Origin: Xylanibacter ruminicola 23
GTDB taxonomy: Bacteria; Bacteroidota; Bacteroidia; Bacteroidales; Bacteroidaceae
Assembly: GCF_000025925.1 (NCBI RefSeq)
Contig: NC_014033.1
Span: 3,450,001 to 3,482,000 of the forward strand
Reading direction: 5' to 3'
DNA length: 32,000 nucleotides
The notes beneath the pieces were generated by a model, which worked only from the letters and a program-made list of their open reading frames with translations, ran no database searches and had not been told where the DNA came from. Shown in pieces: positions 16,089-29,724 of the stretch. The position numbers were made by a program, and so were the translations under genes. Each line of letters begins with the position of its first letter. Position 1 is the stretch's first letter.

Positions 16089-16849
16089 TATTCCTTTTTT
16101 ATTTCCTTAATTACACCAGTGCCGCCAGCCTCTATATTCTGGATCTCAGTATCCACAACCTTTGTGTTTACATATTCCTTTGGCTTTATGATAGTGGAAC
16201 TTTTTATACCAAACTTGTCATACAGGGCTATAACTTCTTTGTCATAAGCATGGTTGTGTTCGATGTTATAACGATTAATAAACAGCAGATTCCCCTTAAT
16301 GGATTCTTTGTCCATTTTGTCGGAACATGCTGCCATGTAGGCAAACAGCTGTTTGATTTCTTCCGATCCGCCGCCATCCAGCTTTATCTCTTGCAGTTCA
16401 TAGTCCAACAGATTTGTTTTCTTGCCTTCCAGCCAACGAGCATCCTCCTTATTAGTCATTTTTTCGATGAGAGGCCACATCAGTTCGTGACCGTCTAAAT
16501 GCTCGAAGATGTGGAGGATAATCTTTCGGATATCTATGTTCGCATATTTTTTGTTCAGGGCTTGCAATTGGACTGTGGCTAATACCAGGATGAGCATGGC
16601 ATCATTATCTCCCTCGGCTTCATCCTCCAAATCCTCAATCTCATATTCTAAGCCTTCGTCGATGTCTGGTAAAGCCAGTACTTCGTGGCAAAAGTTTTGG
16701 GCAGACAAGACAACTTCGGCGGGTGACAATTCTGTATGCCCATCGCGTTGCATTTGCTTTAGTGCATCTTGACTGATGATATATACCACATCAGCGAGCA
16801 GCTGATGACGGGCTGGTTTCTGTTGCTCCTTTTCTAACCTTACTATCAT
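16088..16849 (-). CDS. Hypothetical acidic protein (253 aa), second gene of a coupled operon
   Basis: It overlaps the upstream gene by 4 nt (ATGA). It has an acidic block, EIEDLEDEAEGDND. The C-terminus reads VVDTEIQNIEAGGTGVIKEI. Confidence 0.7.
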   Translation of the reverse strand: MIVRLEKEQQKPARHQLLADVVYIISQDALKQMQRDGHTELSPAEVVLSAQNFCHEVLALPDIDEGLEYEIEDLEDEAEGDNDAMLILVLATVQLQALNKKYANIDIRKIILHIFEHLDGHELMWPLIEKMTNKEDARWLEGKKTNLLDYELQEIKLDGGGSEEIKQLFAYMAACSDKMDKESIKGNLLFINRYNIEHNHAYDKEVIALYDKFGIKSSTIIKPKEYVNTKVVDTEIQNIEAGGTGVIKEIKKE

Positions 16850-17835
16850 GCAGCCTGCTCCTCATCTATAGCTTCCACCTCGTGCTTCATCGAGTTCATC
16901 AGTCCGAGCACCGCTTCTTCGGCTTTCAGACGGTCTTCTGGTTCTACCTTGCTACCGTCCTTCTTTCTTGACTTGAACAAAATTTCCAGATGATTCTCGT
17001 CGAACTCATGGCTCACAATCTTATCCGTATTGTCGCCATCGTTGTCAATGAAGCATCTGAACGTGATTCCATCGGTAGTTATCAGTTCCACAGGCTCATC
17101 TACGGCTTCGGCAAACGTTAGCATATTGCGCATGAAAACACTATTCTTATCTACATAAAGTGCTGCCTTTCTGTCTTCTGGCATTACTGTGTAATGTCCT
17201 TTATACTTAGCTTTCTTCTGCGCATAGCACACATCCAGGATTTGCCCCATGATGGAATCATCGAAATAGTCGCGTTTCTTGGCCTTCAATGCCTCCACTT
17301 TCGCCAGAATATCCTCCTTCTCCATCTCTGGTGTTCCAAAGCGCATCTGCTGGGTATGTGCCTGTTGAAGCTCCCATATCGTGAAAAGGTCGGCGGGGTA
17401 ATAGTCGGGCAGAATCTCAAACCCATAGCAATGATCCAAGAATAGTCGCTTGTCTATGACCTGTGACAGAATCTTTGCCACCTTATGCGTGTCGCTGAAA
17501 GCCTTCCTTCGCTTCTGGATGGCCACGGTACGCATGTTGTTGCGATTGTCGATAATGACAAAACACGATGGCTCGTCCTTGGCCATAGCGGGTTCAAAGT
17601 CGCGCTCCACGGGTATATCAATATTATTTGCAAAGCGCATCACCGTGATACTTGGTGCTATGCTCAAATGATACACCTTGTGTTTATATACCTTGCGGTC
17701 GGAATCTTCTCCTAAACAAAACTCGATGCTCTCATTATTTTCAAAGAGCGCATCCAAATGCTGTTGACGCAGCTGCCAGTCGTAGCAGCCTGCAGCGTAC
17801 TTGTATTTACAGTAATATTGTGCGAATTTAGACAT
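16846..17835 (-). CDS. Hypothetical protein (329 aa), first gene of a coupled operon
   Basis: A long intact ORF. The start is set at ATG 17835 (MSKFAQYY), since the track start at 17859 is a TTG. No family was recognised. Confidence 0.7.
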   Translation of the reverse strand: MSKFAQYYCKYKYAAGCYDWQLRQQHLDALFENNESIEFCLGEDSDRKVYKHKVYHLSIAPSITVMRFANNIDIPVERDFEPAMAKDEPSCFVIIDNRNNMRTVAIQKRRKAFSDTHKVAKILSQVIDKRLFLDHCYGFEILPDYYPADLFTIWELQQAHTQQMRFGTPEMEKEDILAKVEALKAKKRDYFDDSIMGQILDVCYAQKKAKYKGHYTVMPEDRKAALYVDKNSVFMRNMLTFAEAVDEPVELITTDGITFRCFIDNDGDNTDKIVSHEFDENHLEILFKSRKKDGSKVEPEDRLKAEEAVLGLMNSMKHEVEAIDEEQAA

Positions 17836-18099
17836 TGGTTTATTAATTTGTGCTGTCAAATCTCACACGAAGGCAGATTACCCCCGTGCGTGTGAATATA
17901 TAAATATTGTTAGTTACAGCATTGCTAATATCGCTCTCAGATTTTGTGTCAGTATTTAATGTTCTTATTAAACTCTGTCAGGTTGATGCTTGGCCGATAA
18001 TGCAATACAGTCGATTTAGCGTGGTTGTATATGTCCACGTTTGAGTGATATCCTAAATTGTAATTCTTCATAATTTTTTAAACAGTTTTTAATTGGCTA

Positions 18100-18195
18100 C
18101 AAAGTTACAAAAAAACCTTGTAACAGCAAAGCGATTTTGGAAGATTAACGCAATTCGGCCTGAAATAAAGGCAAAGAGGGGAAAAATGAAGAAGT
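18100..18195. repeat. Left copy of the 96-nt direct repeat bracketing the AT-rich island (partner at 28017-28112)
   Basis: The first 62 nt are identical to the partner, and 91 of 96 match overall by hand alignment. It contains a minus-strand -7 box (TAACTTTG, 18100-18107) and the hairpin gttacaa-aaaaacc-ttgtaac. Confidence 0.9.
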
Positions 18196-18260
18196 TCAAT
18201 TTGGGTCAAATAGCAAATTGTGGAGGATTGGTGAAGGAGTTAGGTTTCCAAATCGTAACC

Positions 18261-18353
18261 TCATTTAGCCATCTCCTTCATCTTTGTGACGAAGCTATTG
18301 AAGCTCGTCAGCAGCTCCTCGTAGGTACTGCGCTCAATTGATATAACTTCCAT
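18261..18353 (-). pseudogene. Truncated excisionase/HTH-like stub (30 codons)
   Basis: MEVISIERSTYEELLTSFNSFVTKMKEMAK* resembles only the N-terminal coiled segment of the ~100-aa Bacteroidales mobile-element HTH (excisionase-like) proteins. The DNA-binding part is absent. It has its own -7 box at 18380-18387. Confidence 0.35.
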
Positions 18354-18379
18354 GTCTGTTTAGTTTTAAATTCTGAGCA

Positions 18380-18387
18380 CAAAGGTA
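18380..18387 (-). promoter_or_regulatory. -7 promoter box (TACCTTTG on the minus strand)
   Basis: The plus strand reads caaaggta, 27 nt upstream of ATG 18353. Confidence 0.45.
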
Positions 18388-18494
18388 CATCATGTTTTCC
18401 AGATAGACTCATTTTGAAAATTCTCTATTGTGAAATAACAATTCAGAGGAACATAATCCTAATGTCTGCCGAGCTTGCTCATAAGGAAGCAGAC

Positions 18495-18530
18495 ACGCAT
18501 CTTTGTGTGGCACTCCACAGAAAAGTGCGT
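18495..18530. repeat. Long imperfect hairpin/palindrome upstream of the WYL gene
   Basis: acgcatctttgtgtgg-cact-ccacagaaaagtgcgt forms a 16-position stem with 13 Watson-Crick pairs, 1 G-U wobble and 2 mismatches. An adjacent 7-bp hairpin pairs tgtctgc with gcagaca. Confidence 0.6.
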
Positions 18531-18639
18531 ATTAGGCTACACCCTTCTACGGAATCAATTTGCGGCATTGCAAGCAATAAAAGACAGGTGCAACCTTGAA
18601 TTATTTCGACCTATGCCTCAATTATTCACACCTTTTTTG

Positions 18640-18647
18640 TATCTTTG
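18640..18647 (+). promoter_or_regulatory. -7 promoter box (TATCTTTG) for the WYL-exonuclease operon
   Basis: TAnnTTTG match 22 nt upstream of ATG 18669. Confidence 0.55.
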
Positions 18648-18668
18648 CAGCATCAAATATTAAAATGT

Positions 18669-19580
18669 ATGGCAAAGAACCTATTAAACAAGTACGTCTG
18701 GTTGGTGGAAACCATTTACAAAGCCAAAAGGATCTCTTTTGAGGAGATCAACCATCGTTGGCTCGATAATGATATAAGCGAGGACAAACCGTTGTCAATT
18801 AGGACTTTCCACAAATGGCGTATCGCTATCGAAGAGATGTTTGGTCTCATCATTGAGAATGAACAGGGTGGTCAGTATCGCTACTATATCCAGAATGCTG
18901 AAGAACTGAGAAGTGGCTCGATGCGCAGCTGGCTTTTCAACACGCTGACTGTCAGTAATCTGATGCTGGATAGCGTCAGCATCAAGGATAAGGTGTTGTT
19001 CGAAGAAATCCCTGATGGCGAGCAGTATCTCCCTGATATTCTTGAAGCCCTGAAGAAGAATCTGGTACTTGGAATGACTTATCAGAGTTTTACCCGTGAC
19101 GAGGCCAATACTTTCGAAATTGAGCCTTATTGTCTGAGGGCTTTTAAACAACGCTGGTACTTGGTGGCGCGTAGTCCCTATTATAATAAGATCATGATTT
19201 ACGCTTTGGATAGGGTTCAATGGCTGGGATTAACCGAAAAGACTTTCAAATACCCCAAGGATTTTATTCCTGTAGAATTCTTTGATGATTGTTTTGGCAT
19301 CATTGCTGACCAAAACGTCAGCATAGAGACTGTCAAGTTCAAGGTCTCCACAGGACAGGCAAATTATCTTCGCAGTTTGAGATTGCATCAATCACAGCAT
19401 GAGATTGAACGGACAGATGAATATAGCATCTTTACTGTCAGGCTTCGCCCTACCTTCGATTTCCGTCAGGAGATTCTCTCGCAAGGTTGTGACATCGAAG
19501 TATTGGAGCCCAAATGGTTCCGTGATGAGGTGGCAGAGATTTCAAAACACATGTGGAACAAATACAAGGATGACAAATGA
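18669..19580 (+). CDS. WYL-domain transcriptional regulator (wHTH-WYL-WCX, BrxR/CapW-like architecture)
   Basis: The central segment FKQRWYLVARS is the WYL signature. An N-terminal wHTH-like region is present. The ~300-aa length is typical. The start is set at ATG 18669. Confidence 0.8.
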   Translation: MAKNLLNKYVWLVETIYKAKRISFEEINHRWLDNDISEDKPLSIRTFHKWRIAIEEMFGLIIENEQGGQYRYYIQNAEELRSGSMRSWLFNTLTVSNLMLDSVSIKDKVLFEEIPDGEQYLPDILEALKKNLVLGMTYQSFTRDEANTFEIEPYCLRAFKQRWYLVARSPYYNKIMIYALDRVQWLGLTEKTFKYPKDFIPVEFFDDCFGIIADQNVSIETVKFKVSTGQANYLRSLRLHQSQHEIERTDEYSIFTVRLRPTFDFRQEILSQGCDIEVLEPKWFRDEVAEISKHMWNKYKDDK

Positions 19581-20068
19581 GAGACTTTGCAGCAATAGAT
19601 TTTGAGACAGCAAACAACGAGCGTACCAGTGTTTGTTCCGTTGGTGTGGTCATCGTCAGAAATGGCGAGATAGTAGACACCTTCTACTCTCTGATTCAGC
19701 CAGAGCCCAATTATTATAATTATTGGTGCAGCCAAGTGCATGGGCTTTCTCGTGAGGACACTGAGGACGCTCCTGTATTCCCAGAGGTTTGGAAGCAGAT
19801 AGAACCACTTATTGATGGCTTGCCCTTAGTGGCCCATAACAAAAGCTTTGATGAGAGTTGCCTGAAAGCCGTATTCCGTTGCTATCAGATGGATTATCCG
19901 GATTATCCGTTCTACTGCACATGTGTGGCTTCTCGCAAGGCTTTTCCACAATTACCCAACCATCAATTGCATACGGTTTCAGAATACTGTGGTTATCACC
20001 TCGAAAACCACCATCATGCCCTCGCAGATGCTGAGGCTTGTGCCTGGATAGCAAGGGAGATTCTGTAA
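19577..20068 (+). CDS. DEDDh 3'-5' exonuclease (DnaQ/epsilon-like)
   Basis: The Exo I motif is AIDFETAN, Exo II is VAHNKSFDESCL and Exo III is HHALADAEA. Its start overlaps the WYL gene stop (ATGA). Confidence 0.85.
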   Translation: MRDFAAIDFETANNERTSVCSVGVVIVRNGEIVDTFYSLIQPEPNYYNYWCSQVHGLSREDTEDAPVFPEVWKQIEPLIDGLPLVAHNKSFDESCLKAVFRCYQMDYPDYPFYCTCVASRKAFPQLPNHQLHTVSEYCGYHLENHHHALADAEACAWIAREIL

Positions 20069-20131
20069 TTATCAACTTATCAACGTTACATTATTATCCT
20101 CATAAAAAGAAAAAGAAAGAAAAATAAGATA
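20069..20131. repeat. Intergenic repeat class 1, copy 1 (partner at 21179-21241)
   Basis: ttatcaacttatcaacgttacattattatcctcataaaa aligns ungapped with ttatcaacttttccacgctacatcattatactcatataa at 33 of 39 positions. Both are followed by purine-rich aag/aaa runs. Both lie just after a stop codon. Confidence 0.75.
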
Positions 20132-20160
20132 TAAGTGTATGATGAATAAGAAAAAAGTAG

Positions 20161-20168
20161 TATCTTTG
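20161..20168 (+). promoter_or_regulatory. -7 promoter box (TATCTTTG)
   Basis: TAnnTTTG match. Its position makes ATG 20173 an unlikely start and favours ATG 20194. Confidence 0.55.
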
Positions 20169-20193
20169 CAGAATGGTTTTATCAGATAGCAAA

Positions 20194-21165
20194 ATGGACG
20201 AGAACAAGATTGTAATATATCAGACGGAAGACGGACAGACACAGATTGATGTCCGCTTGGAGAATGAGACGGTATGGTTGACGCAGGCTCAGATGGCGGA
20301 ACTATTTCAGAAAGATCAGTCTGTTATAGCTCGTCATATTAACAATGCTTTGAAGGAGGGTGAACTTGAAGAAAATAGTAATATGCATTTTTTGCATAAT
20401 ACTCAATACAAGTATCGTCCAACAAAGATTTACGACCTTGATACCATTATCTGTGTTGGCTACCGTGTTCATAGTAAACGTGGTGCTGCATTTCGTATCT
20501 GGGCACGCAAGATTATCAAGGATTATCTTGTGAAAGGCTATGCTGTAAACCAGCGCATTCATAGTGAGCAGATTGGAGAGTTGCGTCAGTTGGTAGGTAT
20601 GCTTGGGCGTACCCTGCAAAACCAACCTGTTATCTCTACTGATGAAACTGCAGCTTTGTTCGAAGTGGTTACAGATTATACTTATGCACTTGATACACTC
20701 GATAACTACGACTACGAGCGACTCGCCATCGATAAGACCACAAAAGAAGAGCCTTTCCACGCTACTTACGAAAATGCGATGGAAGCCATCAGTGGCTTGC
20801 GAGAGAAATTTGGTGGCTCAACTCTCTTTGGTAACGAGAAAGATGATTCTTTCAAGAGTAGTATTGGCCAGATCTATCAGACTTTTGGAGGTGAGGAACT
20901 CTATCCAAGTGTTGAGGAGAAAGCAGCCATGTTGCTATATCTGGTAACGAAGAACCACTCCTTTAGTGATGGCAACAAGCGTATTGCTGCCACGTTATTC
21001 CTCTGGTTTCTGAACAATAACCACATCCTGTATCGCAAAGACGGTTCAAAACGTCTGGCTGATAACACCCTCGTTGCTCTTACGTTGATGATTGCAGAGA
21101 GCAAGACGGAGGAGAAGGACGTGATGGTAAAAGTCGTGGTTAATTTAATTAATCAGAAGAACTAA
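20194..21165 (+). CDS. RhuM-family N-terminal domain fused to a Fic/Doc domain
   Basis: The N-terminal pattern IVIYQTEDGQTQIDVRLENETVWLTQAQMAELF...VGYRV.S.RG..FR.WA is RhuM-like. The C-terminal HSFSDGNKRIAATLFL matches the Fic/Doc motif HxFx(D/E)GN(G/K)R. Confidence 0.8.
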   Translation: MDENKIVIYQTEDGQTQIDVRLENETVWLTQAQMAELFQKDQSVIARHINNALKEGELEENSNMHFLHNTQYKYRPTKIYDLDTIICVGYRVHSKRGAAFRIWARKIIKDYLVKGYAVNQRIHSEQIGELRQLVGMLGRTLQNQPVISTDETAALFEVVTDYTYALDTLDNYDYERLAIDKTTKEEPFHATYENAMEAISGLREKFGGSTLFGNEKDDSFKSSIGQIYQTFGGEELYPSVEEKAAMLLYLVTKNHSFSDGNKRIAATLFLWFLNNNHILYRKDGSKRLADNTLVALTLMIAESKTEEKDVMVKVVVNLINQKN

Positions 21166-21178
21166 CCAATTTCGTCAT

Positions 21179-21241
21179 TTATCAACTTTTCCACGCTACA
21201 TCATTATACTCATATAAGAATAAGAGAAATAAGAAAAGATA
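21179..21241. repeat. Intergenic repeat class 1, copy 2
   Basis: See the copy at 20069-20131. Confidence 0.75.
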
Positions 21242-21261
21242 ATAATAATGATGTTTTTATA

Positions 21262-21300
21262 AGGTGTGCCTCAATACGGCGCACCTTTCTTGTATCTTTG
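21262..21300 (+). promoter_or_regulatory. Hairpin-plus-promoter cassette junction
   Basis: The hairpin pairs aggtgtgcc (21262-21270) with ggcgcacct (21278-21286). It is followed by ttcttg and the -7 box TATCTTTG (21293-21300). Confidence 0.6.
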
Positions 21301-21327
21301 CATCGTGAACTATAAAGATGTAACGAT

Positions 21328-21723
21328 ATGACAGTATCAGAATTATTTAAGAAGTATGACTTTGAAAGCCTACTACCGCATTTAAATCACCTCTTTATGG
21401 TGAATAGTGGGCGGCATTTCTCTGAAGCGAGTATTGAGGTGTTCAGAGGTCTTTATAAAAAATGGACCGAGTGCGAAACAAAACCTACGAATCGCCATAT
21501 CCGACTTGTATCTCGTTGGGAGCATACAAGTCCTTCCATTGATATGAATTGTCATGTTAAAGAGAAGAATGTTTTTTGCTACGCAGTAGCAGACCAGAAA
21601 GATATGATTGAAGTACTGGGCATGAAAGTGAGAGTAGATAAAGACGTTGAAATCAGCGAGGTGGAGTTGGCAGCTGGTCTCTTTTGGGAAATGACCTATT
21701 ATGGTCCTAAAGAAAATGGATAG
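21328..21723 (+). CDS. Hypothetical protein (131 aa), paralogous to the N-terminal domain of the 25486..26532 product
   Basis: ELFKKYDFESLLPHLNHL matches ELLNSVTFEEVAPCLLHL. VEISEVELAAGLFWEMTYYG matches VEATNAELAACCIWHTSFYG. It may be a DUF6557-type family, which is an unverified recollection. Confidence 0.7.
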   Translation: MTVSELFKKYDFESLLPHLNHLFMVNSGRHFSEASIEVFRGLYKKWTECETKPTNRHIRLVSRWEHTSPSIDMNCHVKEKNVFCYAVADQKDMIEVLGMKVRVDKDVEISEVELAAGLFWEMTYYGPKENG

Positions 21724-21769
21724 TTATACGAAATTATGTTAATACGCTCTATTGTTCAAAATAAAGTAG

Positions 21770-21777
21770 TATCTTTG
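21770..21777 (+). promoter_or_regulatory. -7 promoter box (TATCTTTG)
   Basis: It lies inside the long track ORF 21736..22632, which argues for the ATG 21802 start. Confidence 0.5.
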
Positions 21778-21801
21778 TTGCACCTAAAAGAAATAAGGAA
21801 T

Positions 21802-22632
21802 ATGATTAACGGATTTAAGGTTATAACCCTCTGCGGTAGCACTCGCTTCAAGGAAGAATTCTTGGAAGCACAAAAGCGTCTGACACTTGAAGGCAACATC
21901 GTTATTTCTGTGGGGCTGTTTGGCCATTCTGGTGACGATGTGGTATGGACAGAGGGAGTGAAGGATATGTTAGATCGCCAGCATCTGGCAAAGATTGACT
22001 TGGCTGATGAAATCTTTGTCATCAATGTGGGTGGTTATATTGGCGATAGCACCAGACGCGAAATCGCATATGCAGAATTCAAAGGCAAGACAATTAAATA
22101 TATGGAAAATAGTAAGAAAACAAACATCTATGAGAATTACGCTGCATTGCGCGAACTTCATGATGCAGGAAGAATCTCTGATGATGATTTTGAACAGGCG
22201 GGACGAGACTTTGACGAAAAGCGTAAAACTGCTATAGCTGAGTATAACGCATGCCAAGGTCCCTGGCCCTATCAGTGGAAAAACATAGATACTGTTGTCT
22301 GTGGAGTTTTGCAGCAGATGGACGTTGTCTCTATTGACTATTCAGACCTCAAAGATCTCTATGATGCTGATAGCGTATATGAAGTTCGCATTAAAGGAAA
22401 AGGAGCCAATGATGAAGAACAACTTCAAAACATCATTGACACAATCAGAAGTGAATACATGGCCAAACTACGTTCCCCAAGGAAGGCTGTTGTAACGTTA
22501 TGTGCTTCGTCTAATCCTTCTGGCTTACTTGAAAAACTTGCCGACTGCATGGATGGCCTGAATGTAGTTTGGCAGACAAGAACTCTCCATACAGATACAA
22601 AAGAAATAGAATTGTCAATATTATTTGTATAA
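21802..22632 (+). CDS. Nucleoside 2-deoxyribosyltransferase-like (NDT/Rcl-fold) N-terminal domain fused to an unknown ~170-aa C-terminal domain
   Basis: The N-terminal pattern is KVITLCGSTRF...LTLEGNIVIS...HLAKIDLADEIFVINVGGYIGDSTRREIAYAEFKGKTI. It resembles a phage/actinobacterial NDT-like family (GS.RF ... H..KI..AD...V.N..GY.G.ST..EI.YA...GK). This is from memory. Confidence 0.45.
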   Translation: MINGFKVITLCGSTRFKEEFLEAQKRLTLEGNIVISVGLFGHSGDDVVWTEGVKDMLDRQHLAKIDLADEIFVINVGGYIGDSTRREIAYAEFKGKTIKYMENSKKTNIYENYAALRELHDAGRISDDDFEQAGRDFDEKRKTAIAEYNACQGPWPYQWKNIDTVVCGVLQQMDVVSIDYSDLKDLYDADSVYEVRIKGKGANDEEQLQNIIDTIRSEYMAKLRSPRKAVVTLCASSNPSGLLEKLADCMDGLNVVWQTRTLHTDTKEIELSILFV

Positions 22633-22636
22633 GTAT

Positions 22637-22996
22637 ATGGAATTGTTAGAACAAAAGATAAATGAACTAATAGGACGGTTAGAGGCATTACATAAGAATC
22701 CCAATCCTGATTTTGATAGATTAAGGGAAAAAGTTGATGCTATAGAGTATGACTATTCCAAGTTAGAAGAAGAATATTATGAGTTGAGGGAAGGAGAAGA
22801 GGCATTACTTCTTCCTATAGAGTATATCGAAGACCGTCTTCAGTATGCAAATGCATTAATCTTTAGGATCTGCGATGAAAACGGATTGGAATACGCTGAT
22901 TATAATGAATATGATGGCGGAATAATTAGGGTGCCTTTGGAAGATAAGGAAGAGAATAGTTCTTTGCAATATCTGCCGATGGATAATATAGAATAA
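22637..22996 (+). CDS. Small acidic coiled-coil-like hypothetical protein (119 aa)
   Basis: ATG 22637 lies 4 nt after the upstream stop. The protein is Glu/Asp-rich (EEEYYELREGEEALL). No family was recognised. Confidence 0.6.
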   Translation: MELLEQKINELIGRLEALHKNPNPDFDRLREKVDAIEYDYSKLEEEYYELREGEEALLLPIEYIEDRLQYANALIFRICDENGLEYADYNEYDGGIIRVPLEDKEENSSLQYLPMDNIE

Positions 22997-23035
22997 GCGT
23001 GATTGTATATTTTTTATGGATATAATTGGAAAAAT

Positions 23036-24214
23036 ATGAGTGGAGAAGAATACAAAAAATGGGTTAACGAAGCATATTTATATATTAGTAAAAAGGAGGT
23101 ATATGATAGAGTAAACCAACTTAAGTATGTCAATGTAGGTTCTACTCAGTACATTCCCAAAATTGACGGAAATGTAGAATTCGTATTTCTTGGTCATGAT
23201 GCCCATGAAGGGAGAGGCGATAACGACAAATTGGATATTACCTTTGCGAAAGAAAGATTTTATAAAGGTAATGGTGATCCAAGAATTTGGCGTAAATGCC
23301 CTGAATGGAAAATATGGAATAATATGGAACGCGCTTTATGGAGAGTTGGTTTTGCTGAGATAATGGATGATAAATATATCTCAGATGAAATACTGAAGAA
23401 TACGATAGTAACCAATGCTTTGTTTTTTACTTATGCGAATGACAGCGAAAAAGCGCTCGCAAAAAAACTCAATACTCTCTTGGGACCAGATATTGTTAAT
23501 GAGTGTATGAAACGTACAGGGGAGCTTATTTTTGAGGTAATAAAACCCAAAATGGTAATATGCTCTTCTTGTTCTATGGTTTTTGAGCCTCTTATAAAGA
23601 ACTATAATGCAGATATTAGGTATGAGGTTATCCGTTTGGAAGGAACAAGTAGAAGAGTTATGAGATGTAATTATAATGGTGTTACCGTGCTAGGAATACC
23701 ACATACAAGTTATCCTGTTCCATTACCTGTGGCAGCATTTGTTCGAGACTCATATTTGGGGAAAGATAATGGATATACAATGTCAAATGTATCTTATGCG
23801 TCTTCTATTAATCCCATGCATCTTCGTGCTAAGGCACTAAAAAAAATGATTAGTAAAAATTGGGCGGTACAAAGTATTTACTATAATATACTTTACCACG
23901 AATATTATTCTACAAAAGTAGATGGAAAATATGTAAATAGCAAAGACAATATTGTTATTGATTTGACTCCTGAAGAAGACAAGAATCAATATGTGGTACT
24001 TGTATTCACACGTCAGAATGACATTGAAAAGACAAGAGATTTAATAAAAGGCATTTGGCCATATGAAAAATTCAATCCATGGGTATGCGACAAATCGCGC
24101 CATGTTCATGAGGTGATTTCTTTCGAAGAAAGCAATGAGGAGATTAAAAACAAGATGGAGAAAGTGCTACAAGAAGTGAAGGCATATCGTGACAAAGAGT
24201 ATCCTCTGAAATAA
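23036..24214 (+). CDS. Hypothetical protein (392 aa); N-terminal ~260 aa possibly uracil-DNA-glycosylase-superfamily fold
   Basis: The motifs VEFVFLGHDAHEG, IVTNALFF, IKPKMVICSSCSMVFEPL and VTVLGIPHTSYP occur in the order and approximate spacing of UDG-family motifs (GEAPG / TN.VK / P..I..LG / HPS). The motif A residues are atypical. Confidence 0.3.
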   Translation: MSGEEYKKWVNEAYLYISKKEVYDRVNQLKYVNVGSTQYIPKIDGNVEFVFLGHDAHEGRGDNDKLDITFAKERFYKGNGDPRIWRKCPEWKIWNNMERALWRVGFAEIMDDKYISDEILKNTIVTNALFFTYANDSEKALAKKLNTLLGPDIVNECMKRTGELIFEVIKPKMVICSSCSMVFEPLIKNYNADIRYEVIRLEGTSRRVMRCNYNGVTVLGIPHTSYPVPLPVAAFVRDSYLGKDNGYTMSNVSYASSINPMHLRAKALKKMISKNWAVQSIYYNILYHEYYSTKVDGKYVNSKDNIVIDLTPEEDKNQYVVLVFTRQNDIEKTRDLIKGIWPYEKFNPWVCDKSRHVHEVISFEESNEEIKNKMEKVLQEVKAYRDKEYPLK

Positions 24215-24238
24215 AAGCTTATATTATTCTTTCTTTAT

Positions 24239-24278
24239 AACCTCTGCCCTAAAACGGCATTGGGTTCTATTATCTTTG
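24239..24278 (+). promoter_or_regulatory. Intergenic repeat class 2, copy 1 (degenerate hairpin plus TATCTTTG promoter)
   Basis: aacctctgccctaaaacggcattgggttctattatctttg is the counterpart of 25035-25074. The -7 box is at 24271-24278. Confidence 0.65.
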
Positions 24279-24308
24279 CATAGTGATTAATATATAAAGA
24301 ATAAAGTT

Positions 24309-24962
24309 ATGGAGAATGAAAAAAAACGATTTTCAAGTGAGATAAAAGTGATAGACGAATTATTTCCAAAGGGAAAAGTCTCAATTCTGGCATCTGGTCC
24401 CGGTGTGGGCAAAACAATATTTGCTTGCAAAATAGCCAAGTGGTTAACTTATCACAGGGAACGCGTTCTTTATGTCAATATGGCGTCTGACCATATAAAT
24501 ATAGACACTTCGGATGACGATACTATTCCATGGAAATGTAGCTTATTAGACATGCCTCTTCTTTCAATAGAGGATATATCGTTTGTATTGTCAAGAAGAT
24601 ATACTTTTGACACCATTATTCTCGACTACATAGAATTGATGTATTTTGTCAAAGGTATAGAATGCTTGAAAAGGAAAGAAGAACTAAATGCTATTTGGCA
24701 TTTTCTTGACCATATTGCAAAAGAAAAGAACATTCGTGTAATAGGATTGTCCCAGTTGGAACGAGGCCGTATAGATGGAACAGAAGAGTCTTGTTTCGAT
24801 AAAGTGCTGAAATACTTAAACAGGGATTTTGTTAGGGAAAGACTTGTCGTTTTACATCGCCCTAGTTATTATGAGCCACAAGATAATAATACTGAGCAAG
24901 TACAATTAATAACGTTTAAGAATGGAATAAAAAAGGAAAACATATTAGAAAATACAAAATAG
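24309..24962 (+). CDS. DnaB-helicase C-terminal (RecA-fold) domain-only ATPase
   Basis: The Walker A motif is ILASGPGVGKTIFACKIA and the Walker B-like motif is TIILDYIELM. VIGLSQLERG matches the DnaB (A)LSQL(S/N)R motif, and VVLHRPSYYEP matches DnaB ..YRD.YY. There is no DnaB N-terminal domain, and the SDLRESG-type motif is not evident. Confidence 0.65.
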   Translation: MENEKKRFSSEIKVIDELFPKGKVSILASGPGVGKTIFACKIAKWLTYHRERVLYVNMASDHINIDTSDDDTIPWKCSLLDMPLLSIEDISFVLSRRYTFDTIILDYIELMYFVKGIECLKRKEELNAIWHFLDHIAKEKNIRVIGLSQLERGRIDGTEESCFDKVLKYLNRDFVRERLVVLHRPSYYEPQDNNTEQVQLITFKNGIKKENILENTK

Positions 24963-25034
24963 GAAAAGAAGTAATACTTACAGGCTTACAGGTTTAAGTT
25001 ACAATACAATATAAAGCGCGATACAGAAAAGCTC

Positions 25035-25074
25035 AACCTCTGCCCCAAAACGGCAGGGGTTTCTTTTATCTTTG
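25035..25074 (+). promoter_or_regulatory. Intergenic repeat class 2, copy 2 (10-bp terminator hairpin plus TATCTTTG promoter)
   Basis: aacctctgcc (25035-25044) pairs with ggcaggggtt (25052-25061). It is followed by tcttt and the -7 box at 25067-25074. Confidence 0.7.
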
Positions 25075-25082
25075 CACCATAA

Positions 25083-25493
25083 ATGAAAAATAGTATGAAC
25101 TCGAACAGAAATTCCAGAAGAAAAGATTGTCTTATAATGGTGTTGACAATCGTTATTATTACCCTCGTCGCTATCGTTTTATGTGGTTCATTAATGAGGG
25201 TACTTGAAGGACGCTTGCTATTTCAACTATTTGTTGCAGTATTGTTAAGTGTTTCCGCTACCGGTATAATAACGACTCTGTTATTATACTCACAGCGTAT
25301 ACAACATGAGGAATGGGTAAGAGCACAAATGGTGTTTTTAGAGGAACAAATCAGAGACCAACGGCTTTTTGAGTCAAAGCAAAAGCAGAAAGAAAAAGAA
25401 AGGCTTTGGGGATTTTTAAGAAAACTATGTGATATGGTTAAAGACCAGAAGATCTTACCTGAATACATCTACAAGGAATTATATAATGAATAA
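25083..25493 (+). CDS. Small membrane protein (two predicted TM helices plus a charged coiled C-terminal tail)
   Basis: The hydrophobic segments are LIMVLTIVIITLVAIVLCGSL and LFQLFVAVLLSVSATGIITTLLLY. The tail is Lys/Glu-rich (ESKQKQKEKERLW). Confidence 0.65.
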   Translation: MKNSMNSNRNSRRKDCLIMVLTIVIITLVAIVLCGSLMRVLEGRLLFQLFVAVLLSVSATGIITTLLLYSQRIQHEEWVRAQMVFLEEQIRDQRLFESKQKQKEKERLWGFLRKLCDMVKDQKILPEYIYKELYNE

Positions 25494-26532
25494 AGATATA
25501 AGAACAATTATGACTTTCAAAGAATTATTAAACAGCGTTACATTTGAGGAGGTGGCTCCCTGTCTTTTGCATTTGCATCCAGATGCAGAGGGTAATTTGA
25601 AATGGTATAAGATTCATTTCGATATGTTGCGTCAGATGACACCCAAGCATCATGATGATGCAAATAGTGATGTGTGCAATATCACAATGGAAAAGTGGAG
25701 GGAAGGTAAGATGATTCTCGATGCTCATCCAATGGAGGGTGATTTGTGGGAGCATTCACTAACAAAAGAAATCATTCTCGCTCCTGATGTTGAAGCTACA
25801 AATGCTGAATTAGCAGCTTGTTGCATCTGGCATACCTCATTCTATGGCTTTGTGGATAAGCAGGCACAGGAATGCTTAAGGTTTGACGAGGATGATTTAG
25901 ATATCAAAGACAGGTGGGACGACTCTATCTATAATAAGGTAAAAGCAATGCGGTATTTCTCCATCATTCGCAGAAATGGTGGCCATGTTCCTACTTTGAA
26001 AGAATTGCCGCAATCAAAGAAAAAGGAATTGATTAAGCAATCTAAAGAATATTTCTGGTGTATCAGTGAATCGATGAACAATACTAAAAAGAAGAGGATG
26101 TTCCGAAGAGAATTTATGGGCTACTACTACGAGCGTATGGCAGCTATCAGCAGGTTTATCGTTCAGGCAATTCCGGCATTGGGTGACGAAAGAAATAATA
26201 TGAGTATTGAACAACTCTGTGGTTTGTTTAAGTCAGACCTATTTAGCCCAGAAACAATCACATCGTATGCTGATGAGCATACGAATGGGGCAAAGTATTT
26301 CTGCGATTTACTGGAGATGGAAGATATCAATACCAGATTAGATAGAATGGTAGTGGTTCTAACAACAGGAGAATATCATAAAGAACTGACGGAAGACGAA
26401 CAACGCTTATGCAAGCTTCTTATTGGCAATTGTAAATCAAGCAACATCCTCTTGGCTACAGACCCCTCATTAGGCAGACAAGTCCGTATCGACTATGCTA
26501 CGTTTAATTTAAAATATCCATTAGTAAAATAA
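25486..26532 (+). CDS. Hypothetical protein (348 aa); the N-terminal ~120 aa are paralogous to the 21328..21723 product
   Basis: ATG 25486 overlaps the upstream stop by 8 nt. The shared motifs are listed under 21328..21723. The C-terminal ~230 aa are unrecognised. Confidence 0.65.
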   Translation: MNKDIRTIMTFKELLNSVTFEEVAPCLLHLHPDAEGNLKWYKIHFDMLRQMTPKHHDDANSDVCNITMEKWREGKMILDAHPMEGDLWEHSLTKEIILAPDVEATNAELAACCIWHTSFYGFVDKQAQECLRFDEDDLDIKDRWDDSIYNKVKAMRYFSIIRRNGGHVPTLKELPQSKKKELIKQSKEYFWCISESMNNTKKKRMFRREFMGYYYERMAAISRFIVQAIPALGDERNNMSIEQLCGLFKSDLFSPETITSYADEHTNGAKYFCDLLEMEDINTRLDRMVVVLTTGEYHKELTEDEQRLCKLLIGNCKSSNILLATDPSLGRQVRIDYATFNLKYPLVK

Positions 26533-26533
26533 T

Positions 26534-26836
26534 ATGGGAAAAAGGAAAGTGAGAAATGATGACTATATTAATAGTTTTCCAATAAGTGAGGTCTGGGGGA
26601 CTTATCACTATTTGGCACGAGAGATTGCTCCTCGATTGAAAGCTTTCAAGGCTCTTGATAAACATGGATGGCCAGAAGATTTCGAGAGCCAGGAGGATTG
26701 GAATAAGGCTATTCAGAAGATGATTGATGCTTTTGATTTGGTGAAGTACTATTCTCCGTCTTATGAAGAAGATATACGGATTGTTGAACAAGGGGTGGAA
26801 TTGTTCTGCAAGTATTATCGTGATTTGTCGGATTAA
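26534..26836 (+). CDS. Hypothetical protein (100 aa), tandem paralog A
   Basis: It starts 1 nt after the upstream stop. It shares FPI.EVW....YLA..IA.RLKAFKALDKHG....F....EWNKAIQKMIDAF.L........E.....E.G.ELFCK.YR.L.D with the next gene. Confidence 0.7.
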   Translation: MGKRKVRNDDYINSFPISEVWGTYHYLAREIAPRLKAFKALDKHGWPEDFESQEDWNKAIQKMIDAFDLVKYYSPSYEEDIRIVEQGVELFCKYYRDLSD

Positions 26837-26851
26837 CAATATTGATTCTAT

Positions 26852-27166
26852 ATGAAAAGGAAGAAGAAAGATGACTCCGCTGAGAACTGGAGTTACAAGA
26901 ATGACTTTCCAATAGAGGAAGTCTGGAACACAGACAATTATTTGGCTGGGGTGATTGCTGCTAGATTAAAAGCATTCAAAGCTCTCGACAAGCATGGCTA
27001 TTGTCCTGCGTTTAAGGGAATGGCAGAATGGAACAAGGCCATTCAGAAGATGATTGATGCATTCGAGTTACTGAAGCATATAACAACATTCAGTGAAGAA
27101 GAAGAAAAGACCATTGAGGAAGGACTTGAATTGTTCTGCAAGCATTATCGAAATTTATGGGATTAA
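26852..27166 (+). CDS. Hypothetical protein (104 aa), tandem paralog B
   Basis: See 26534..26836. RLKAFKALDKHG and NKAIQKMIDAF are identical in both copies. Confidence 0.7.
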   Translation: MKRKKKDDSAENWSYKNDFPIEEVWNTDNYLAGVIAARLKAFKALDKHGYCPAFKGMAEWNKAIQKMIDAFELLKHITTFSEEEEKTIEEGLELFCKHYRNLWD

Positions 27167-27807
27167 CTAATCGTGTTATTATGGACAACAATGTAGATGT
27201 TATAGAGAGGGAGATCTTTCTAAAATATAATGATTATCGCTGTTATAACTCTGATAATGATGTGCTTTTGTCCCTACGAAAAGGCATCATCAACAAGCAG
27301 ATTCTGGCAAATCAAAAAGAGCTATTACCTGATATTATCGCCTTTAATGATGCACTGCGTGAGGCACTTCGTGACATGTACGATCGAGCTCATCGTATCT
27401 GGGATAAGATGATAAACATCATAGATGAGGGTGATGGCGAAGAGATGGAGCTTACTGCTAAAATATATCTCGACACAGACTATCCGGCTTTGCATCCTAT
27501 ACAAGGTGATGATAGGCAGGATTTGTGGTACGCACTGTGTGATGATGATCTGAATCCTATGTATGCTGATGGCATTTCTGTGCTGACTCTGACATTCCCC
27601 AGGGATGAGGGCTATACTTTTGATACGTTCATAGGTATGGATTGCCCTCCACCTAATTGGAATGAAGGTCTTGACCCTGAGTTGACAAAGGACTTGCACC
27701 TCATCAGCCAATTCCACAATCTCTTTCAGCATATGTTGTTTGCCATTACTGATTTCATCTATGTAAGGAAGTTCAAGACGGAGATTAATATTGAAATTAT
27801 ACAGTAA
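27157..27807 (+). CDS. Hypothetical protein (216 aa; alternative start ATG 27181)
   Basis: It is the last ORF of the five-gene operon. It overlaps the upstream gene by 10 nt if the start is 27157. No family was recognised. Confidence 0.6.
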   Translation: MGLTNRVIMDNNVDVIEREIFLKYNDYRCYNSDNDVLLSLRKGIINKQILANQKELLPDIIAFNDALREALRDMYDRAHRIWDKMINIIDEGDGEEMELTAKIYLDTDYPALHPIQGDDRQDLWYALCDDDLNPMYADGISVLTLTFPRDEGYTFDTFIGMDCPPPNWNEGLDPELTKDLHLISQFHNLFQHMLFAITDFIYVRKFKTEINIEIIQ

Positions 27808-27846
27808 ATAAACAATAAATGTTTTTGGTAATTTAAAAGAAATGAT

Positions 27847-27854
27847 TACCTTTG
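27847..27854 (+). promoter_or_regulatory. Orphan -7 promoter box (TACCTTTG) with no ORF downstream
   Basis: It faces the minus-strand -7 box of the right direct repeat (28017-28024) across ~160 nt of ORF-free DNA. Confidence 0.45.
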
Positions 27855-28016
27855 CACACGAAGTTGAGTCATGAAATGGCTGGTGACCCATCTTCGGGTG
27901 CTCATTGAAAGCAATTTATAGCAGAACGTGGAATTGAGAACGGTCTCCAATCCGTAACCCAGAAAATCCTCAAATCCCCAGACTGCCTCTATTTAAAGAA
28001 ATCCTGCAAATTCTTG

Positions 28017-28112
28017 CAAAGTTACAAAAAAACCTTGTAACAGCAAAGCGATTTTGGAAGATTAACGCAATTCGGCCTAAAATAAAGGCAAGACGGGGAA
28101 GAATGAAGAAGT
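28017..28112. repeat. Right copy of the 96-nt direct repeat bracketing the AT-rich island
   Basis: See 18100-18195. It carries the same minus-strand TAACTTTG box (28017-24) and the same hairpin. Confidence 0.9.
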
Positions 28113-28351
28113 ATTTTGGATGGAAGTTTACCTAATGTGGCAAGTATAACATTAATTCCATGATTAACAAGCCTTGCAAATGATAGTTTTTGAGTAAAAA
28201 CTTGTTGTTATCAAAAAAAAGTGTGTATATTTGCACTCATGAATGCTAATGACCAGAATATCACATATACCTTTTATAAATTGGGGCCAAGTTTTATTAC
28301 GTGGTTCTATCCTTTTGCATACTATATAGGTAGAAAGAACAGATTATTGAT

Positions 28352-28359
28352 TAATTTTG
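28352..28359 (+). promoter_or_regulatory. -7 promoter box (TAATTTTG) 10 nt before the DUF1016 ATG; alternative TATATTTG at 28226-28233
   Basis: Both are TAnnTTTG matches. I cannot tell which one is used. Confidence 0.35.
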
Positions 28360-28369
28360 CAAACGCAAT

Positions 28370-29578
28370 ATGGCAACAGACAAACAGAAACTACAGATGA
28401 GTGAAGATTTTGACTCTTTGGTCAGACGTATACAGAACACGAGCGATGTCCTGCAACAAGACGCTCGATTGGTCATCAATCGGAATGTCACCACACGTGC
28501 GTGGCTGACAGGTTTTTATATTGTGGAATACGAACAGCACGGAAAGGATCGTGCAAAGTATGGCGATAAACTGCTAAAACGTTTGGCTGAACAATTAGAT
28601 GACAAAAGCTTCAGCCTTGCCAGTCTGAAGAATTATAGGCAATTCTATCTTTATTATCCTGAGATAGCACGACCTATAGCAGACTATTTACAGCATAAGA
28701 CACAAAAAAGCCAATCACTGATTAGCCTTTTTCAACAGATAGGAAATCAGAGACTTATAAAAAGCCAATCACTGATTAGCCTTTCTGATGGATTACAATC
28801 AGATATTGTTTCTGAGGATGGATTTGCTATTAAAGCGGCAAATGGGAATGTGATGGCTGCTCCTGATATGGTATTTAATAGATTATCTTTCACACATATA
28901 GCGCAGTTGATACACTTGAATGACCCTCAGAAACGAGCATTTTATGCCATCGAAGCCATGCGTGGACCATGGAGTGTGAGAGAACTTCAGCGGCAGATAG
29001 ACAGCAATTACTACGAACGTAGCGGGTGGAGTAAGAAACCAGAACTGTTGGCAAGCAAAGTCAATGACAAAATAGAGAGACCTACTTTCAGAGGAGAACT
29101 GAAATCGCATTATGTATTTGAGTTTTTAGGGCTATACGCAAAAGATACTATCGAGGAAGATGTATTGGAGCAAAGCCTCATTGACCATCTGGAAGAATTC
29201 TTGTTAGAGCTGGGCATGGGATTCTGTTTGGAGGCACGACAGAAGAAACTGCTTATCGACGATCGTTACTTCAAGGCAGACTTGGTGTTTTACCACAGGA
29301 TATTGAAATGTCACTGTATCGTGGAATTGAAAGGGCATCGTTTGGATTATGCGGATGTTGCTCAGTTGAATATGTATATAGAGTATTATCGCAAGAACTA
29401 TATGCAACCTGAAGACAATCCCCCTGTAGGTCTGCTCCTCTGCACAGAGTACGGACAAGAAATGGTTGAATACTTATCACCATTCGTGGATCCTCAGTTG
29501 TTTGTAGCACAATACGAACTTCAACTGCCCAGCAAGGAGAAGATGAAGGAATTCCTGTTGAGAGAAAACAGAGGATAA
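28370..29578 (+). CDS. DUF1016/YhcG-family PDDEXK nuclease-domain protein
   Basis: The N-terminal region has the YhcG-type pattern RAWLTGFYIVEYEQHG. LSFTHIAQLIHLNDPQKRAFYAIEAMRGPWSVRELQRQI is present. The C-terminal D...E.K nuclease core reads DLVFYHRILKCHCIVELK. Confidence 0.8.
   Translation: MATDKQKLQMSEDFDSLVRRIQNTSDVLQQDARLVINRNVTTRAWLTGFYIVEYEQHGKDRAKYGDKLLKRLAEQLDDKSFSLASLKNYRQFYLYYPEIARPIADYLQHKTQKSQSLISLFQQIGNQRLIKSQSLISLSDGLQSDIVSEDGFAIKAANGNVMAAPDMVFNRLSFTHIAQLIHLNDPQKRAFYAIEAMRGPWSVRELQRQIDSNYYERSGWSKKPELLASKVNDKIERPTFRGELKSHYVFEFLGLYAKDTIEEDVLEQSLIDHLEEFLLELGMGFCLEARQKKLLIDDRYFKADLVFYHRILKCHCIVELKGHRLDYADVAQLNMYIEYYRKNYMQPEDNPPVGLLLCTEYGQEMVEYLSPFVDPQLFVAQYELQLPSKEKMKEFLLRENRG
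28705..28784 (+). repeat. In-frame 26-nt perfect direct repeat inside the DUF1016 gene (28705-28730 and 28759-28784)
   Basis: aaaaagccaatcactgattagccttt occurs twice, 54 nt apart. This gives KSQSLISL twice in the protein. Confidence 0.85.
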
Positions 29579-29599
29579 TTTTTTTTTGAGATTTACAAG

Positions 29600-29630
29600 C
29601 CTTGCAAACGGAAATCGCTTGCAAGGTTTG
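29600..29630 (+). terminator. Intrinsic terminator after the DUF1016 gene
   Basis: ccttgcaa (29600-29607) pairs with ttgcaagg (29619-29626), followed by tttg. Confidence 0.55.
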
Positions 29631-29657
29631 TATTATGGTAATAGGACGTAATTGATC

Positions 29658-29692
29658 GTCACATTGTAACTTTGTAACAATGTAACATTAAG
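29658..29692. repeat. Right arm of the 35-nt inverted repeat (partner at 12369-12403)
   Basis: It matches the partner at 32 of 35 positions. It contains a plus-strand TAACTTTG box with no ORF within ~470 nt downstream. Confidence 0.85.
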
Positions 29693-29724
29693 GTGGTGGT
29701 AGTTTGGGTGGGGAATGGTATAAG

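Follow-up and report, generated by a model that had tools for sequence, protein, structure and literature searches.

A probable integrase-deleted integrative island in tandem with the remains of an earlier member of its family in Xylanibacter ruminicola 23

In the genome of Xylanibacter ruminicola 23 (assembly GCF_000025925.1, contig NC_014033.1), an AT-rich array of co-oriented genes is bracketed by two long direct repeats, and no recombinase gene accompanies it. It lies within the stretch of 32,000 nucleotides (nt) that we analysed, hereafter the window, which corresponds to positions 3,450,001 to 3,482,000 of the forward strand. How did this island reach its present position, and why does it have such long repeats and no enzyme to act on them? 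Based on the comparison of the window with related contigs, designated by L and a number, we consider it very probable that the island is an integrase-deleted copy of a Prevotellaceae integrative island, and that the relic of an earlier element of this family lies next to it in tandem. The apparent puzzle of long repeats without a recombinase thereby becomes a standard story of tandem insertion followed by decay.

The direct repeats, at 18100-18195 and 28017-28112, are 96 nt long and match at 91 positions (95%), which agrees with the hand alignment of the original prediction. Positions 1-62 of the two copies are identical, and all five mismatches are confined to the final 34 nt, an arrangement with a chance of 0.0046 if the mismatches were placed randomly. 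The island (18100-28016) exhibits a G+C content of 0.386, compared with 0.489 (1-12400) and 0.486 (30001-32000) in the far flanks, and is thus AT-rich, as had been noted by eye; the lowest value within it, 0.339, is found at 22625-25032. The low G+C content extends past the right repeat (0.396 for 28113-30000). The left neighbour, 12401-18099, has a G+C content of 0.478 overall, and its three genes at 15612-17835 have intermediate values of 0.42-0.47. Between the repeats, 13 credible genes were recognised, all of them coded on the plus strand, as predicted; the sole minus-strand coding trace is a 30-codon remnant of an HTH_17 gene (18352 to 18260). These 13 genes code for a WYL-WCX regulator, a DEDDh exonuclease, a RhuM-Fic fusion, two DUF6557 proteins, a DnaB_C-like P-loop protein and seven proteins without a family. 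Neither family searches nor tblastn revealed a recombinase in the island or in the rest of the window.

The absence of a recombinase, pointed out in the original prediction, is true of the window but appears to be secondary, as intact copies elsewhere have an integrase and two HTH_17 genes at the place of a deletion of about 2 kb in the window. Among the ten places shown, the WYL protein is 100% identical in nine other contigs, in at least five chromosomal contexts. In six of the contigs shown, the WYL gene is preceded by a tyrosine integrase gene and two successive HTH_17 genes. The integrase of the intact copies is a protein of 406-425 amino acids (aa), coded on the plus strand and comprising Arm-DNA-bind_5, Phage_int_SAM_5 and Phage_integrase domains. 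The HTH_17 genes are on the minus strand and code for proteins of 98 aa and 106-120 aa, the first of which has an excisionase-family domain according to NCBIfam. The host neighbours of the copies include an ABC transporter/CotH (L021 and L022), YAcAr (L023 and L024) and a Zn-peptidase (L028). Across at least five flanking contexts, the copies of the element are 95-100% identical.

The intact element measures about 11.4 kb in L021, and its alignment with the window locates the deletion. Positions 7378-7546 of L021 align with positions 18092-18260 of the window at 84%. The next 2051 nt of L021 (7547-9597) comprise the integrase gene, one HTH_17 gene and the greater part of the other, and nothing in the window corresponds to them. 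Positions 9598-13956 of L021 then align with positions 18268-22624 of the window at 95.6%, and positions 15785-18815 align with positions 25033-28033 at 82%. The remnant of the second HTH_17 gene (18260-18352, minus strand) comprises 30 codons followed by a stop, and 29 of the 30 residues coded from 18352 to 18263 are identical to the L021 protein (tblastn). A longer tblastn match of 60 aa, which extended the HTH_17 protein into the left end of the island, was rejected, as it consists of the 30 true codons followed by noise with stop codons. Judging from these alignments, the window island is a copy of this element whose integrase/excisionase module was deleted at the junction 18260/18268. The integrase was also lost in L027, where the copy adjoins MutS, and in L039, where it adjoins TrpS, with junctions unlike that of the window. 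L039 is a mini-island of 2.8 kb, reduced to the left end, the WYL, exonuclease and Fic genes, and the right end. Comparison of these junctions indicates that the integrase was lost independently several times, in at least three deletions including that of the window. Relatives of the integrase form 3537 clusters at 90% identity (E<1e-30). No contig matching the genome of X. ruminicola 23 is listed in the best 120 clusters, which is only weak evidence against a sibling integrase in this genome.

With regard to the repeat itself, it had been proposed to be a promoter-containing sequence that served as insertion target. The comparison does not support this proposal. The left end of the island (18100-18260), whose first 96 nt are the left direct repeat, is 84-88% identical to the approximately 160 nt that precede the integrase gene in L021 (7386-7546), L023, L024, L028 and L029, and the homology starts exactly at CAAAGTTAC in every copy. 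By this comparison, the repeat is the integrase-proximal terminal sequence of the element itself. At the other extremity, the right end (27860-28016; 157 nt) shows 100% identity with its counterparts in L021, L023 and L026, where it is followed by CAAAGTTACGAAAAAA only and then by unrelated chromosomal DNA. The normal direct repeat of the family is thus only about 16-17 nt long, with CAAAnTTACnAAAAAA as its core, and the ends are conserved at the same bases in all copies. There is no tRNA or tmRNA gene at either end of the island, and an Rfam scan of the window returned only a cobalamin riboswitch, located far from the island; therefore, the element does not target a tRNA gene.

It could be argued that the 96-nt sequence is a host promoter element and that the island enters and leaves by RecA-dependent homologous recombination, without a dedicated recombinase ever having been involved. 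The perfect 62-nt core and the clustering of the mismatches in the last 34 nt resemble the footprint of such an exchange, many assemblies break exactly within the core (the contigs L002, L003, L005, L010, L011 and L015 end inside it), and loss of the island between the two copies would yield exactly the allele found in L009, described below. This explanation is nevertheless improbable in our view, as a sequence found directly upstream of the integrase gene at unrelated sites, with the same start base, travels with the element, and intact elements need only the short repeat. Moreover, the exact core 24-mer gave three matches in the metagenomes of the Joint Genome Institute (JGI), all at this locus, and the exact core 28-mer gave no match in 185,579 species-representative genomes. 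In these collections, the exact repeat is therefore not a scattered multi-copy element, a possibility that the original prediction had named as a reason for its own rejection. Homologous recombination may still be the route by which the island is lost or by which its ends are homogenised.

If the family needs only a short repeat, the origin of the 96-nt repeat in the window must be sought in the alleles of the locus. These were found by exact-protein look-ups of the flanking genes, followed by a metagenome scan with the repeat 24-mer, which added L016 and L017. L008, L016 and L017 are island-free, as are, with less certainty, L006 and L009. In L006, L008 and L009, the left flank (up to 18099) is followed by a single right-type repeat, after which comes the DNA that lies beyond 28112 in the window. 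L006 and L016 extend to the YhcG gene of the right flank, and different genes follow the single repeat in L017. In these alleles, the junction passes exactly through the repeat. Taken alone, L006 and L009 could be assembly shortcuts across the repeat. This does not apply to L008, because it was assembled with k=141, which exceeds the repeat length, and because it contains relic sequence that is absent from the window. Occupied alleles are common, L007 being one of them. The presence or absence of the island is thus a true polymorphism, at a locus variable in other ways too, and the empty sites expected for a horizontally acquired, deletable accessory island do exist in relatives, as single-repeat junctions in metagenome contigs.

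The island-free contigs L006, L008, L009, L016 and L017 retain exactly the right-type copy of the repeat, joined to the left flank. L008 and L017 retain more, namely further left-end bases and an HTH_17 remnant, which differs from the left remnant of the window both in its sequence (about 8 of 46 positions) and in its deletion junction. Because island-free strains carry the right repeat together with a distinct HTH_17 remnant, this repeat is best explained as the relic of a separate, older element. In the window, the right repeat and about 14 further nt (28017-28126, plus strand) would correspond to the left end of this second, decayed element, in the most reduced form of the relic, which is also present in L009. 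The 96-nt repeat would therefore exist because its right copy is the end of a second element and not a duplicated target.

Within the repeat, a putative recombination core was identified at 18104-18124. It comprises the arms GTTACAA (18104-18110) and TTGTAAC (18118-18124), separated by the 7-nt spacer AAAAACC. The inverted repeat GTTACAA-N7-TTGTAAC is present in each of the two repeats and corresponds to what had initially been described as a hairpin. Inverted arms around a spacer are the usual layout of a tyrosine-recombinase core. In attL, the initial 10 nt depend on the site (CAAAATTACA, CAAATTTACA, CAAAGTTACG and CAAAGATACT), and the sequence after the A-run is constant for each element type. 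In attR, the initial 16 nt are constant in L021, L023 and L026, and the sequence beyond varies. The variable 10 nt of attL and the constant 16 nt of attR would place strand exchange within the A6-7 run between the imperfect inverted arms. When folded as RNA, the right end showed no structure (z = 0.12). A candidate arm-site motif, TCCAAnnCGTAACCC, was not convincing: it has three matches, compared with 0.5 expected, and 3 of 100 shuffles equalled this number.

On the other strand, the outer arm and the A-run read TTTTTTnGTAAnTTTG, which is a Bacteroidetes promoter -7 box preceded by a T-rich spacer. The promoter pattern TTTG-N19-TAACTTTG is found on the minus strand of each repeat, in line with the original prediction, and has 10 matches in the window compared with 1.0 expected; scans with sigma-70 and terminator consensus sequences gave no enrichment. 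In the left repeat, this pattern forms a predicted outward promoter at the element end (18100-18130, minus strand), which faces the operon running from 17835 to 15612. As direct reading of the 265 nt from 18100 to the start codon at 17835 revealed no further -7 box (CAAAnnTA), the left copy probably drives this operon, as had been suggested. The right copy was rightly said to face DNA free of open reading frames, and this DNA is the right end of the island. A -33-like TTG is present at the same spacing in six of the seven left ends, the strict TTTG form being restricted to the window.

The left end abuts the 5' end of an outward-transcribed gene in all six sites with a readable flank (ABC transporter, YAcAr, Zn-peptidase, MutS, TrpS and the operon starting with the gene of a 329-aa protein). 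In addition, the reconstructed empty sites of L023 and L039 are canonical TTTG-N19/21-TAnnTTTG promoters, and that of L021 fits in a relaxed form. The element appears, partly from direct evidence and partly by extrapolation, to insert inside a promoter, between its -7 and -33 boxes, and to replace its upstream half. In the proposed mechanism, the integrase would recombine at the inverted-arm core with its A-rich spacer, and the chromosomal target would be the part of a Bacteroidetes promoter delimited by its -7 box (TAnnTTTG) and its -33 box. The host gene would then keep its own -7 box, and the element end would provide it with another spacer and a -33-like box. A second promoter-like site, TTTG-N-TACCTTTG, is present just before the right end (27824-27854, plus strand) and faces outward. 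If it is functional, transcription from it would cross the joint of a circular form of the element in the direction of the integrase gene; in the window, it faces the minus-strand promoter of the relic.

Taken together, these data suggest the following history for the locus. An older element would have integrated into the promoter of the operon of the 329-aa protein and decayed to its left end and a scrap of its HTH_17 gene. The present island would then have integrated at the same core, recreated at the edge of the relic, which would have left two ends of about 96 nt in direct orientation. A deletion of about 2 kb (18260/18268) would subsequently have taken the integrase gene, one HTH_17 gene and most of the other. 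Finally, gene conversion probably made positions 1-62 of the two ends identical. The island would now be unable to move by itself, but homologous recombination between the 96-nt ends, or a related integrase acting in trans, could still remove it.

Several points weigh against this reconstruction. The order of events, with the relic first, is suggested by parsimony alone. Position 10 of the right repeat is an A, whereas the attR of the element normally has a G. The two copies are identical over positions 1-62, yet the closest intact left end, that of L029, differs there and has the variants of the left copy at positions 63-96. As neither the A at position 10 nor the identity over positions 1-62 is predicted by simple site-specific tandem integration, gene conversion, or alternatively integration by homologous recombination, had to be added to the scheme. 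Mobility is deduced from the occurrence of the same element at differing sites, and the empty sites of the copies located at other sites were reconstructed from their attL and attR. Furthermore, in 20 Prevotellaceae species representatives of GTDB, which are mostly metagenome-assembled genomes from the rumen, WYL-led arrays adjoin housekeeping genes, and this type of integrase is absent up to a distance of 10 kb. The array may thus also spread or persist without this integrase.

The comparison with known systems is consistent with an integrative island that has lost its autonomy. As in tyrosine-integrase genomic islands, the ends are defined, the att core is short, the sites are varied and island-free sites exist. 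The window copy is a derivative of a member of this class and not a functional member, since it does not have its own integrase. NBU1 and NBU2 are Bacteroidales integrative mobilizable elements with IntDOT/NBU-type tyrosine integrases. A Bacteroides mobilizable element (headed by P0224; L060-L064) has an integrase that is 73% identical to that of the Prevotella element ('MULTISPECIES site-specific integrase [Bacteroides]') and has the same domain architecture. Both elements have an integrase at one end, a modest size and cargo of the conflict type. Only the Bacteroides element has a primase, MobC and a relaxase; the L021 copy is without recognisable mobilisation or replication genes and has instead the array of WYL, exonuclease, Fic and DUF6557 genes. 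No relaxase or conjugation gene was found in the window island or in the precomputed Pfam matches of the complete L021 copy, though an oriT that escaped recognition may be present. The cargo of the Bacteroides element comprises a PIF1-like helicase and TOTE-type conflict genes (DUF7017 and S1CSD-TOTE).

Concerning the site of exchange, the element can be compared with CTnDOT, for which an IntDOT att consensus TTTGCNNNNN has been described, with a TTTG(C) motif in which TTTGC is followed by five heterologous bases at the crossover (PMC2034462). Both systems involve a Bacteroidetes tyrosine recombinase, and the outer edge of our element, GTAAnTTTG(C/T) with its flank, resembles the attDOT/attB sequence. 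In contrast to CTnDOT, exchange would here take place between inverted arms, within an A-run situated some 10 nt inward of the TTTG. CTnDOT also differs in being a large conjugative element. The proposed tandem arrangement resembles that of Salmonella genomic island 1, for which the head-to-tail integration of a second element at the att site of a resident one is reported (PMC2297512). The likeness lies in element ends in direct orientation, the tandem origin being deduced in our case; the differences are that the resident partner is here reduced to about 110 nt and that the incoming one would later have lost its integrase.

The size of the intact element, its terminal integrase gene accompanied by small divergent HTH genes, and the DnaB_C-like ATPase could also suggest a phage satellite (PICI-like) or a defective prophage. 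PHROGs, however, gave no match to virion or packaging families such as capsid, terminase or portal. Its only matches are DnaB-like and DnaC-like ones for the 217-aa protein, and phrog_11543, phrog_12723 and phrog_6357, of unknown function, for four proteins. In addition, the DnaB_C-like gene sits in a variable slot of the array and is absent from most relatives. A phage origin of this kind is therefore hardly credible.

With regard to its internal organisation, the array of the relatives consists of a conserved left backbone, a variable slot, which corresponds to 22625-25032 in the window, and a conserved right backbone. The left backbone comprises the WYL regulator, the exonuclease, usually RhuM-Fic, a DUF6557 protein (131 aa) and a protein of about 276 aa. 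In the window, the WYL-WCX regulator (18669-19580, plus strand; Pfam WYL 3.7e-14, WCX 1.6e-11) is coded by the first gene of the array, followed by the DEDDh 3'-5' exonuclease (19577-20068, plus strand; Pfam RNase_T 4.4e-21, PADLOC DEDDh, and a match to part of the PDC-S48 profile) and the RhuM-Fic/Doc fusion (20173-21165, plus strand; Pfam RhuM and Fic, and PADLOC candidate PDC-S23 over its full length at 9e-137). For these three proteins, Pfam and PADLOC agree with the functions initially assigned by reading the translations. The left backbone continues with the 131-aa DUF6557 protein and the 276/298-aa protein (21328-22632, plus strand), which are 80-99% conserved in near-identical copies and about 60-100% conserved in more distant relatives. 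The family of the 276-aa protein has 3969 clusters at 90% identity, every one of which is named hypothetical.

The RhuM-Fic gene seems to behave as a separate cassette, judging from its surroundings and its distribution. It is enclosed by 63-nt direct repeats (20069-20131 and 21179-21241; 75%), and its state varies among relatives: L038 does not have it, L030 has it at the far end of the array (18378-19307), and an ISL3 transposase gene interrupts it in L023 and L024. The variable slot of the window (22625-25032, plus strand) comprises the genes of a 123-aa protein, a 403-aa protein and the 217-aa DnaB_C-like P-loop protein (Pfam DnaB_C 1.6e-14). Other genes are found there in relatives, including those of a PDDEXK_4 nuclease (PADLOC candidate PDC-S26), a YgjP/SprT-like peptidase and several unknowns. 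The right backbone comprises a membrane protein of about 120 aa, a DUF6557 protein of about 348 aa, two paralogues of about 100 aa and a protein of about 216 aa. In the window, these correspond to the 136-aa membrane protein, the 348/367-aa DUF6557 protein, the 100-aa and 104-aa paralogues and the 216-aa protein (25083-27807, plus strand), and this region is 75-96% conserved in relatives. The tandem paralogues (26534-26836 and 26852-27166) are 56% identical, and both match phrog_11543. Reduced arrays were also observed in L052-L059, where the WYL, exonuclease and Fic genes are missing and the 276-aa backbone protein, the PDDEXK_4 nuclease and proteins of 114 aa and 335 aa are present.

The genes had been described as promoter-bearing cassettes, and modules comprising a 10-bp hairpin, a T-rich run and a TATCTTTG promoter box are indeed present at three intergenic sites of the island (21261-21302, 24239-24280 and 25035-25076, plus strand). 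Related loci contain 58 further copies, every one of them on the same strand as the array, and those that were checked against gene calls are all intergenic. The copies are mostly 97-100% identical (range 87-100%), even beside proteins that are 60-85% identical. Two classes of stem differ by three fully compensatory pairs, with 97% of cells paired, compared with 35-57% with a slid partner. These modules are best read as terminator-plus-promoter insulators. The island genes would then form separately expressed cassettes, each preceded by a terminator-like hairpin and a promoter box. The reduced arrays of L052-L059 terminate in the same hairpin-promoter module.

This organisation raises the question of whether the array is a Prevotella version of rAID-1, i.e. 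a recombinase-associated store of orphan immunity genes against contact-dependent toxins, as the original prediction had proposed as one option. The rAID-1 loci are defined by a 5' XerD-like recombinase at least 44% identical to BF9343_RS08045 and by at least two co-directional downstream genes with a G+C content of 41% or less (bioRxiv 10.1101/471110; PMC12247911). The island resembles them in its low-G+C array of short, co-oriented genes and in the tyrosine recombinase of its intact relatives, and its conserved hairpin-promoter modules may be comparable to the conserved intergenic motifs of rAID-1. It has 13 co-directional genes and an overall G+C content of 0.386, with values at or below the limit over most of the array and of 0.43-0.46 for the first three genes. 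However, the window has no recombinase, and none of the immunity families Imm, SUKH and SMI1 was found in the 13 island proteins (Pfam, E<=0.01) or in 10 variable-slot proteins from relatives (Pfam, E<=0.001). Besides, two opposite-strand HTH_17 genes lie between recombinase and array in the intact relatives, the WYL, exonuclease and Fic genes that follow are outside the rAID-1 description, the mobile ends are defined, and most of the array is conserved backbone and not a free mix of cassettes. We consider an immunity store of this type very improbable. The array is not an integron either: the integrase of the relatives scores 47.8 bits, compared with an integron-integrase cut-off of 265, and each cassette has its own promoter box.

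A broader reading is that the WYL-led arrays represent an undescribed Prevotellaceae cassette platform resembling integrons or rAID. According to this reading, slot genes would be swapped at the hairpin-plus-promoter junctions, which are near-identical across species whose proteins differ by 15-40%, and the carrier integrase would target the spacer of host promoters and rewire them. Hosts would repeatedly fix the array by deleting the integrase, and the cargo would be a reservoir of new defence or conflict genes. We regard this set of proposals, taken as one, as rather unlikely, though deserving consideration; an integrase-deleted island in tandem with a relic remains our preferred explanation for the window.

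With regard to the function of the cargo, we can tentatively propose, with low confidence, that the WYL regulator governs a group of conflict or defence-like genes. Control of defence loci is common among regulators of the WYL-WCX type. Further hints lie outside the island, in the YhcG nuclease gene of the right flank and in the GajB/Nhi-like helicase gene of an insert in L016, both described below. For the phage defence suggested initially, PADLOC returned only 'phage defence candidate' singletons (PDC-S23 for RhuM-Fic and part of PDC-S48 for the exonuclease) and generic WYL and DEDDh models; it found no complete known anti-phage system in the island, the 131-, 100- and 104-aa proteins not being in the scan. 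The remaining scanned proteins gave two marginal matches (LmuB, 0.0032; AbiO, 0.0026) or none. PHROGs and NCBIfam added only the DnaB-like matches of the 217-aa protein and the signature of a Doc toxin in Fic. PDB sequence searches with the 298-aa, 403-aa and DUF6557 proteins gave nothing meaningful, and the AlphaFold2 model of the 348-aa DUF6557 protein (predicted local distance difference test, pLDDT, 66) had no PDB match at E<=0.001. An FtsZ fold was considered for the 276-aa protein and rejected, as the best Foldseek matches of its AlphaFold2 model (pLDDT 74) had a template-modelling score of about 0.25 and a root-mean-square deviation of 17-19 Å. The conserved backbone could instead serve the element itself.

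In the literature, we found no paper that mentions DUF6557 or GTANNTTTGC, or that describes a WYL/RhuM island in Bacteroidales. The element family therefore seems undescribed, and the island itself seems to be an ordinary kind of object. The family is very common in gut and rumen Prevotella. Three features may deserve the attention of specialists: the integration into promoter spacers, where the element end would provide a replacement -33 region and rewire the neighbouring host gene; the recurrent loss of the integrase module with retention of the outward promoter; and the highly conserved hairpin-promoter junctions around a variable, very AT-rich slot, a sensible place to seek new defence genes.

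In the left flank, the operon at 15612-17835 (minus strand) comprises three genes, for proteins of 329, 253 and 158 aa, and its transcription leads away from the island. The three proteins matched no family in Pfam or PADLOC. This operon is the presumed original target of integration, and it may itself have been acquired, because its G+C content is intermediate. In the right flank, the YhcG/DUF1016 PD-(D/E)XK nuclease gene (28370-29578, plus strand) matches Pfam at 7e-43 and the PADLOC candidate PDC-S02 at 8e-110. It holds a perfect 26-nt direct repeat (28705-28730 and 28759-28784, 54 nt apart), which corresponds to an in-frame duplication of 18 residues (KSQSLISL...).

The right flank is also variable. 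L016 has a different insert of 7.1 kb (7396-14498) between the repeat and the YhcG gene, at the position corresponding to 28312/28313 of the window. This insert codes for a 470-aa protein, an Hsp70-like protein of 802 aa with a repeat-rich tail, a UvrD/GajB/Nhi-like helicase of 421 aa, and proteins of 429 and 124 aa; it looks like an uncharacterised defence-type module. To the right of the YhcG gene, where the window has an HU-HIG gene, L016 (1-6070) has another co-oriented array, which includes the genes of a DnaB_C-like protein of 293 aa and a single-strand-binding-like protein of 127 aa, both likenesses being judged by eye only.

Near the left end of the window, the cobalamin riboswitch mentioned above is located at 485-669 (plus strand) and scores 78 bits (gathering score, 31.5). 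The window also contains two pairs of inverted repeats, one of 35 nt (12369-12403 and 29658-29692; 91%), which carries the CAAAGTTAC/GTAACTTTG -7 box as in the element core, and one of 30 nt (12415-12444 and 30737-30766; 90%). Together, these two pairs (12369-12444 and 29658-30766) enclose the entire low-G+C stretch, including a DUF3987 gene and the HU-HIG gene.

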